Assembly: GCF_000026545.1 (NCBI RefSeq)
Contig: NC_011601.1
DNA length: 64,000 nucleotides
Reading direction: 5' to 3' (one strand)
DNA from: Escherichia coli O127:H6 str. E2348/69
GTDB lineage: Bacteria > Pseudomonadota > Gammaproteobacteria > Enterobacterales > Enterobacteriaceae
Part shown: piece by piece, positions 15,001 through 18,000 of the stretch
Layout of the letters: each line of letters starts with the position of its first letter
How positions within the stretch are numbered: position 1 is the first letter of the stretch
Program-made: the position numbers

Positions 15001-18000
15001 CAACATACAGCGCCTTATTCATATTGGGGAATTTACCGTTACTATCTATTAAGCCAGCTTTATCAGTCACACCAATTAATGTTCCTGATGAATCAAATAA
15101 GTTGATCAGCATAAAGGAGAAAATGATACCGGCGAGTTCAAGTGATAACGCACCGCTCAAATCCACTTCACCAATGACGCCGCTAATATCAGGCGGAATG
15201 GAATAGACACCGCTAAAATGAACATCACCGAAAAATAATCCACAGCAAGACGTCACCACAATAGAAACAAGCACCGCGGCATGAAAATGACGTGATGACA
15301 ACACGGTTATAATAAAAAAACCTAAAATACCTAACAACACGCCGTGAGAACTTAAATCGCCAATCATCACCAGTGTGTCTTTATTGGCGACAATAACGCC
15401 AGTGTTTTTTAATCCCATTAAGGCGATAAATAATCCGATCCCGCTGGTGATACCAATACGTAAACTTAATGGAATGTTGGAGATCATCCAGTACCGGATA
15501 CGAAACAGCGTGAGCAAAAATAGCCCAACTGCGCCCCAGAATATCGCGCCCATCCCGGTCTGCCAGGAGATACCCATCGCCCCCACGACCACGAAGGCAA
15601 AGAAGGCGTTCAGGTCCATTGCCGGAGCCAGTGCCACGGGTAAGTTAGCAAATATCCCCATCGCAATACTGCCGATACCGGCAATCAAACAGGTGGTAAC
15701 AAACACCACTTTTGGGTCCATTTGTGCCGCGCCGAGGATTTGCGGGTTCACAAAAACGATGTACACCATGGTTAAAAAAGTGGTCATCCCCGCAATCAAT
15801 TCTGTGCGGACGGTGGTCCCATGCTGAGGTAGTTTAAATAATCGCGAAAGCGTCCCTGATTCATTACTCACGTAATCGGTATTGTCATTATTCATTTTTT
15901 TGTCCATTGGAGGAGATTTAATCCCTTGCTTTTGTAAAACAAATGACAACAACGGTTCAGTGATAATTATCACATTTCAATTGCACATTAATGGATATTC
16001 TTTAATAATCTCGCGATATTTCTTTATGATAAATAATAATCAAATTGATAAAATCAAAATGAGAAAAAATATGAATAATTCTATTAACCATAAATTTCAT
16101 CACATTAGCCGGGCTGAATACCAGGAATTGTTAGCCGTTTCCCGTGGAGACGCTGTTGCCGATTATATTATTGATAATGTCTCTATTCTCGACCTGATCA
16201 ATGGCGGAGAAATTTCCGGCCCAATTGTGATTAAAGGACGTTACATTGCCGGTGTTGGCGCAGAATACGCTGATGCTCCGGCTTTGCAGCGGATTGATGC
16301 CCGCGGCGCAACGGCGGTGCCAGGGTTTATTGATGCTCACCTGCATATTGAATCCAGCATGATGACGCCAGTCACTTTTGAAACCGCGACCCTGCCGCGC
16401 GGCCTGACGACCGTTATTTGCGACCCTCATGAAATCGTCAACGTGATGGGAGAAGCCGGATTCGCCTGGTTTGCCCGCTGTGCCGAACAGGCAAGGCAAA
16501 ACCAGTACTTACAGGTCAGCTCTTGCGTACCCGCCCTGGAAAAGGCTGCGATGTTAACGGTGCCAGTTTTACCCTTGAACAGATGCTCGCCTGGCGGGAC
16601 CATCCGCAGGTTACCGGCCTTGCAGAAATGATGGACTACCCTGGCGTAATTAGCGGGCAGAATGCGCTGCTCGATAAACTGGACGCATTTCGCCACCTGA
16701 CACTGGACGGTCACTGCCCGGGTTTGGGTGGTAAAGAACTTAACGCCTATATTGCTGCGGGTATTGAAAACTGCCACGAAAGTTATCAGTTGGAAGAAGG
16801 ACGCCGGAAATTGCAACTCGGCATGTCATTGATGATCCGTGAAGGGTCCGCAGCCCGCAATCTCAACGCGCTGGCACCGTTGATCAACGAATTTAACAGC
16901 CCGCAATGCATGCTCTGTACCGATGACCGTAACCCGTGGGAGATCGCCCATGAAGGACACATCGATGCCTTAATTCGCCGCCTGATCGAACAACACAATG
17001 TACCGCTGCATGTGGCATATCGCGTAGCCAGCTGGTCGACGGCGCGCCATTTTGGTCTGAATCACCTCGGCTTACTGGCACCCGGCAAGCAGGCCGATAT
17101 CGTCCTGTTGAGCGATGCGCGTAAGGTCACGGTGCAGCAGGTACTGGTGAAAGGCGAGCCGATCGATGCACAAACCTTACAGGCGGAAGAGTCGGCGAGA
17201 CTGGCACAATCCGCCCCGCCATATGGCAATACCATTGATCGCCAGCCAGTTTCCGCCAGCGACTTTGCCCTGCAATTTACCCCCGGAAAACGCTATCGCG
17301 TTATTGAGGTAATCCATAACGAACTGATCACGCACTCCCGCTCCAGCGTCTACAGCGAAAACGGTTTTGATCGCGATGATGTGTGCTTTATTGCCGTTCT
17401 TGAGCGTTACGGACAACGACTGGCTCCGGCCTGTGGTTTGCTCGGCGGCTTTGGCCTGAATGAAGGTGCGCTGGCGGCGACGGTCAGCCATGACAGCCAT
17501 AATATTGTGGTGATCGGTCGTAGCGCAGAAGAAATGGCGCTGGCGGTCAATCAGGTGATTCAGGATGGCGGCGGGCTGTGCGTGGTCCGTAACGGCCAGG
17601 TACAAAGTCATCTACCGTTGCCCATTGCCGGGCTAATGAGCACCGACACGGCTCAGTCACTGGCGGAGCAAATTGACGCCTTGAAAGCCGCCGCCCGTGA
17701 ATGCGGTCCGTTACCGGATGAGCCGTTTATTCAGATGGCGTTTCTTTCCCTGCCAGTGATCCCCGCGCTGAAACTAACCAGTCAGGGGCTGTTTGATGGC
17801 GAGAAGTTTGCCTTCACTACGCTGGAATTCACGGAATAATAAAAAAAGCCCGGCGTCATGCCGGGCAAAAGTCACCAGTTACGTTTATGCCACTGTCAAC
17901 TGCTGAATTTTTTTCTCGCGACGGATTTTGCGTTCTTCCATCACCGCCACTATCGCCATCAGGCAGATACAACCAATCGCGGCGATATCCAGCGCGGCGA

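Follow-up and report, generated by a model that had tools for sequence, protein, structure and literature searches.

Organization of the adeD locus

The window, which is the whole 64-kb stretch of E. coli O127:H6 E2348/69 DNA analysed here, carries the LEE pathogenicity island, yicL, nepI, adeQ, adeD, and uhpTCBA in that order and continues to dnaA, tnaAB, and yieF. It starts inside the LEE. The LEE part (1–9335) contains grlR, etgA, escU/T/S/R, ler, and espG. Two small annotated remnants of genes are present just past the LEE, within 9729–10243: a frameshifted hypothetical gene (9729–9835) and a fragment of an MFS transporter gene with an internal stop (10070–10243).

The adenine deaminase gene adeD (ade/yicP) extends over 16071–17839 on the plus strand, and its RefSeq CDS is flagged "frameshifted". 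Its divergent neighbor, adeQ (yicO), is located at 14561–15895 on the minus strand and encodes an adenine permease (WP_012579024.1). This gene is intact and has no pseudogene flag. The synteny adeQ–ade–uhpT, which is conserved in E. coli, is present in the window. The intergenic region between the divergent adeQ and ade genes (15896–16070) is AT-rich, with a GC content of 25.7% compared with 49.2% for the window.

A two-base insertion splits adeD into two reading frames

The first-pass annotation had described Ade as spread over two overlapping frames that both match the enzyme, and translation of the two frames bore this out. Frame A starts at 16071 and stops at a TGA (16629–16631). Residues 1–157 of its product are native Ade (…SSCVPALE), and 29 out-of-frame residues come after them. 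In frame B, which is open from 16433, native Ade sequence begins with Gly158 (GGC at 16544) and continues as far as the stop at 17839. The junction, which had been placed within 16525–16545, was found at an A-run at 16540–16543. The window reads GGAAAAGG there, compared with GGAAGG in other E. coli. The sequence context of the run is …CCCGCCCTGGAAAAGGCTGCGATG…, and its wider context is …GTACCCGCCCTGGAAAAGGCTGCGATG….

The run on the plus strand is AAAA, and the wild type is AA. The change is a 2-nt insertion or duplication that follows the first base of codon 157 (GAA, Glu157). In the translation, the two extra A residues come after Glu157, and they leave adeD as an N-terminal ORF of 186 aa and a C-terminal part in another frame. 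The +2 frameshift in an A-run proposed from the sequence was thus correct as a gain of two bases; what had to be refined was the run itself, since only the mutant has four A residues. The wild-type run is only AA, and a duplication of 2 nt in so short a run is unlike a typical long-homopolymer miscall. Deleting two A residues gave a continuous 588-aa protein containing …PALEGCDVNG…, the sequence predicted for the uninterrupted enzyme.

ORF A (16071–16631, plus strand) encodes a truncated product of 186 aa. Its 157 native residues include the H90/H92 motif, and the remaining 29 residues are out of frame. The native C-terminal coding part, from Gly158 to Glu588, lies in the other frame (16544–17839, plus strand) and includes E185, H214, H235, E236, D284, and the Adenine_deam_C domain. 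Candidate internal starts in frame B are a TTG at 16523 and ATGs at 16583, 16628, and 16631. Gene callers start the second ORF at the ATG at 16628, giving 403 aa from Met186 without E185. This ATG overlaps the stop codon of ORF A in an ATGA (16628–16631, plus strand). The tidy pair of 186-aa and 403-aa gene calls is due to this overlap; in contig L008, for example, the calls are at 1501–2061 and 2058–3269. By chance, the overlap resembles a translational-coupling junction.

The break lies inside the Amidohydro_1 domain

The conceptual repaired translation was compared with protein families. The repaired 588-aa Ade matched the NCBIfam equivalog NF007457 with 1265.5 bits (cutoff 768) over 1–588 of 588 positions and TIGR01178 with 836.3 bits (cutoff 472.5), and these family matches hold for the conceptual repaired translation only. 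Pfam Amidohydro_1 was found at 82–362 and Adenine_deam_C (PF13382) at 434–579 (E = 1.5e-55). The latter domain is also present in ORF B. The break falls inside Amidohydro_1: ORF A covers only positions 2–90 of the 345-position profile, and the C-terminal frame covers positions 112–343. A single uninterrupted frame for the whole adenine deaminase was not found in the window, where the 2-nt insertion at 16540–16543 interrupts it. Judged by its sequence, adeD in the window is a pseudogene of the adenine deaminase family (EC 3.5.4.2) and not a functional member.

We take the active-site residues of E. coli Ade to be H90, H92, E185, H214, H235, E236, and D284, presumably with the numbering and roles of Kamat et al. 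2011. The repaired Ade has all seven, and each aligns with an identical residue in PDB 3nqb. This structure is one of three (PDB 3nqb, 3t81, and 3t8l) of Atu4426 from Agrobacterium tumefaciens, which is homologous to the repaired Ade over 21–541 (E = 2e-76). The HxH, AE, GH, HE, and TDD motifs of the two proteins align with identical residues. A difference is that Atu4426 is intact. It is a distant orthologue and was used only to place the active-site residues relative to the break. With the seven residues assigned in this way, ORF A contains H90 and H92, and frame B contains E185, H214, H235, E236, and D284. Since H90 and H92 are separated from the other five residues, the complete active site is not present on any one polypeptide. 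A null allele is most likely, and the split active site predicts that E2348/69 should be without adenine deaminase activity.

Distribution of the adeD allele

A 1,951-nt query across adeD was 100% identical to three RefSeq chromosomes: NZ_CP059840.2 (E2348/69, Taunton, UK), NZ_LT827011.1 ("EPEC E2348/69 variety 2"), and NZ_LT903847.1 ("EPEC1", constructed from variety 2). Over its whole 64 kb, the window matches positions 4012443–4076442 of NZ_LT827011.1 base for base. NCBI's PGAP independently flags adeD as a pseudogene with the note "frameshifted" in all three E2348/69-type records, at coordinates corresponding to 16071–17839 of the window. The adeD frameshift is therefore already known, being annotated in RefSeq as the pseudogene "adeD, frameshifted". 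No publication combining E2348/69 with adenine deaminase came up in a literature search.

With a 121-nt query centered on the site, the exact allele was detected in only 3 of the 5,361 complete E. coli genomes matched, and these three are E2348/69-derived. In the best hits after these exact matches, identity was 98.3% over 119 nt, reflecting the two-base gap. A wider spread of the allele was ruled out by this search.

The nearest other strains were Z1323HEC0067, Z1323HEC0423, B19374, and FDAARGOS_536. They have an intact 1,767-nt adeD, and all four read GGAAGG at the site, the wild-type sequence that the first-pass annotation had expected. The repaired 588-aa Ade was identical to a "MULTISPECIES: adenine deaminase" allele present on at least 1000 contigs. 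It showed no amino acid differences from the protein of FDAARGOS_536, and the repaired gene differed from the four nearest intact genes at 2–5 nt in 1,767. Because the repaired protein equals a common intact allele and the gene is only 2–5 nt from its nearest counterparts, the insertion is the sole disabling lesion and evolutionarily recent. Further lesions in adeD were ruled out by the same two results.

The insertion recurs in separate read sets

AAAA was present at the adeD site in 13 of 13 assemblies inspected at the DNA level, and since all 13 are identical or nearly identical to E2348/69 at adeD, they show reproducibility across read sets and not the age of the mutation in nature. They were three RefSeq complete genomes (E2348/69 or a derivative), one NCBI draft, four Logan assemblies from separate SRA runs, and five ENA assemblies. 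The strain of NZ_LT903847.1 was derived from that of NZ_LT827011.1, and these two isolates are non-independent. The ten further contigs were from GCA_053257795.1; Logan SRR1554967, SRR1595973, SRR1931811, and SRR1577785; and ENA ERZ761547, ERZ761549, ERZ761550, ERZ761557, and ERZ761559. They were 99.9–100% identical to the window across the shared 1.5–3.6 kb, and all had AAAA. The names of the ENA contigs give coverages of 20–330×. The exact 186-aa frameshift peptide was indexed in 41 blocks of a large protein collection, with NCBI, Logan, and ENA assemblies as sources. Owing to its out-of-frame tail, this peptide can arise from the adeD frameshift alone.

The first-pass annotation had left two readings, a genuine inactivating mutation or an error in assembling a homopolymer. 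In public genomes, assembly artefacts are often the source of frameshift pseudogenes (PMC11017572), and the adeD lesion sits in a run of identical bases, as would be expected if the true genome had GGAAGG and the extra AA were a miscall carried into the record. However, the same AAAA was obtained from different sources and read sets and at the ENA coverages given above, and a gain of two bases that doubles a 2-nt run to 4 nt is atypical for a homopolymer miscall. Intermediates with three or five A residues were also absent from the allele background, where the band of at least 99% identity held only the three exact matches among 5,361 genomes. A miscall is extremely unlikely in light of these results, and assembly error was rejected on the AAAA found in three RefSeq assemblies and ten contigs from NCBI, Logan, and ENA. 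The reading as a genuine mutation stood. We are highly confident that the adeD AAAA is a genuine mutation specific to the E2348/69 clone and a recent loss of function.

Sequence elements relevant to −1 slippage

The insertion creates GAA_AAG at the junction, with an A_AA.G tetramer in the zero frame. A −1 slip on this tetramer restores the native frame and would yield an Ade of 589 aa, longer by one Lys (PALE-K-GCDV). The heptamer at the site, G_GA.A_AA.G, is non-canonical. In a published survey, frameshifting on tetramers that had no stimulator was 0.147%, compared with a background of 0.112%; six tetramers combined with a strong pseudoknot gave 0.26–5.6%, and A_AA.G was at the top of the −1 hierarchy in E. 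coli (Sharma et al. 2014, PMC4066793).

No stimulatory structure was detected in the 90 nt downstream, which folded at −24 kcal/mol compared with a shuffle mean of −25.3 (z = +0.41). No Shine-Dalgarno-like (GGAGG-like) stimulator was visible in the 20 nt upstream. A frameshift stimulator was ruled out by this fold and by the published efficiencies of unstimulated tetramers, which are near background. The two-frame arrangement was not conserved among relatives, as it occurred in 3 of 5,361 genomes, all of one strain. The adeD site resembles the A_AAG frameshift sites of dnaX and of the IS3/IS911 type in having A_AA.G in the zero frame where a −1 slip restores the protein. It differs from them in being without a stimulatory structure, an X_XX upstream triplet, and conservation, and its expected efficiency is near background. 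At best, −1 slippage at A_AAG would rescue translation with an efficiency of about 0.1%, and the gene so rescued is one described as silenced.

Could the broken gene still function?

Leaky recoding would keep the gene alive if tRNA-Lys slipped from AAG to AAA on GAA_AAG often enough to yield useful 589-aa Ade. The tetramer is in the correct frame for an exact return to the native one, and its leading rank in E. coli was reached when a pseudoknot was added (PMC4066793). At adeD, however, the downstream 90 nt fold no better than shuffled sequence and the upstream stimulator is missing. Since the insertion is recent and confined to one strain, there can have been no evolution of a signal around the site. 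We consider it very unlikely that the gene is kept useful in this way, and equally so that E2348/69 makes a small amount of active 589-aa Ade (+Lys) by a −1 slip, which would make adeD a "pseudo-pseudogene" and not a null allele. An active two-piece deaminase, formed by the N-terminal fragment (1–157) and a C-terminal fragment started internally at TTG 16523 or ATG 16628, is barely conceivable. The two ORFs are long and both are picked up by automatic gene callers, they meet in the coupling-like ATGA overlap, and an ORF from TTG 16523 would together with ORF A span all native residues. Against this, the product from ATG 16628 starts at Met186 and is without residues 158–185, including E185, which is absent from ORF A too, and upstream of TTG 16523 there is only an AGG about 10 nt away, a weak Shine-Dalgarno-like element. 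The cut is inside the Amidohydro_1 domain, and the arrangement is the product of a recent accidental 2-nt insertion and not a conserved architecture.

A phase-variable (contingency) switch, in which frequent expansion and contraction of the A-run would turn ade on and off, has a practically negligible probability. The lesion is indeed an indel in a mononucleotide run, but this run is 4 nt long (2 nt in the wild type), and known contingency tracts are much longer. All 13 E2348/69-type assemblies inspected have exactly four A residues, and no length variants of the run were found in the band of at least 99% identity among 5,361 genomes. The most likely state of adeD remains that of a null allele.

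Proposed course of ade loss

The AA of codon 157/158 was duplicated to AAAA, probably by replication slippage, and this duplication shifted the frame by +2. Translation from the normal start stops at the TGA 29 codons later, and the resulting fragment of 186 aa retains the H90/H92 motif alone. The remaining conserved active-site residues (E185, H214, H235, E236, and D284) and the C-terminal domain are left in the other frame. The cost of losing ade is probably small. In K-12, the gene is described as cryptic and silenced by H-NS, and the DeoD/Add route, which passes through adenosine and inosine, also converts adenine to hypoxanthine. The gene appears to be drifting into decay in E2348/69, as has happened independently in other E. 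coli lineages.

According to Petersen 2002, as cited in PMC2753651, the ade gene of K-12 is a cryptic gene that is activated by IS insertion, with relief of H-NS repression as the proposed explanation. The AT-richness of the adeQ–ade intergenic region of the window is consistent with an H-NS target. K-12 Ade/AdeD (yicP) is the product of the same gene in the same place between adeQ (yicO) and uhpT, and its upstream region is likewise AT-rich. The E. coli-type equivalog NF007457 was matched end to end (1–588/588) by the repaired protein. The difference is that in K-12 and almost all other E. coli, ade is intact, silenced yet activatable, whereas in E2348/69 the frame is broken after Glu157.

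A separate lesion was found in the NCBI drafts GCA_000276765.1, GCA_000249795.2, GCA_000188835.2, and GCA_000225065.2 (including DEC8E and 2534-86), which have a 286-bp out-of-frame deletion in ade. The deletion lies between the near-identical 9-nt direct repeats GATGCCCGC and GATGCTCGC, at a window-equivalent position of about 16305–16581. The resulting 402-aa C-terminal fragment was indexed in 33 blocks. These drafts resemble E2348/69 in that ade is inactivated in the same genomic context and leaves a similar C-terminal ORF (402 aa), but their lesion is independent of the E2348/69 insertion. That E. coli has lost ade in two separate ways, by insertion and by 286-bp deletion, fits weak selection on a gene described as silenced. 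In two of the four drafts, adeQ is also called in two pieces.

Significance of the adeD frameshift

E2348/69 is the reference enteropathogenic E. coli strain. Metabolic models and purine or nitrogen experiments with this strain should treat adenine deaminase as absent. Its adeD, a dispensable gene, is an ordinary case of gene decay and of low interest, and beyond correct annotation, the frameshift matters very little. It is a clean example of how a real frameshift can be told from an assembly error, given that many independent read sets agree, the allele is restricted to one clone, and the repaired protein equals a common allele.

Other disrupted genes in the window and a junction in the ENA contigs

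The gene for the low-affinity tryptophan permease, tnaB (59560–60806), is also annotated as a frameshifted pseudogene. Its frame breaks directly after MTDQSEK, in a run of seven A residues (59576–59582) that is one base longer in close relatives. The exact tnaB allele was present in 5 of 5,401 complete genomes, namely the three E2348/69 records, GPEC1031, and UID2309220013. The galactonate dehydratase gene dgoD (39623–42329) is split by an IS4-like element, ISEc13, with its transposase gene at 40005–41378. The N-terminal piece of dgoD is at 41544–42329, and the C-terminal piece is at 39623–40000.

Four ENA contigs that carry the ade allele lose homology to the window at 15310, inside adeQ. They are L010 (ERZ761549), L012 (ERZ761547), L013 (ERZ761550), and L017 (ERZ761557). 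At this junction, a 16-nt palindromic EcoRI-containing linker, GAGTAGAATTCTACTC, joins unrelated genes, and the variant in L013 is one base shorter. A natural rearrangement was ruled out by the synthetic appearance of the EcoRI linker. The four contigs look like products of a linkered or cloned library of E2348/69 DNA.
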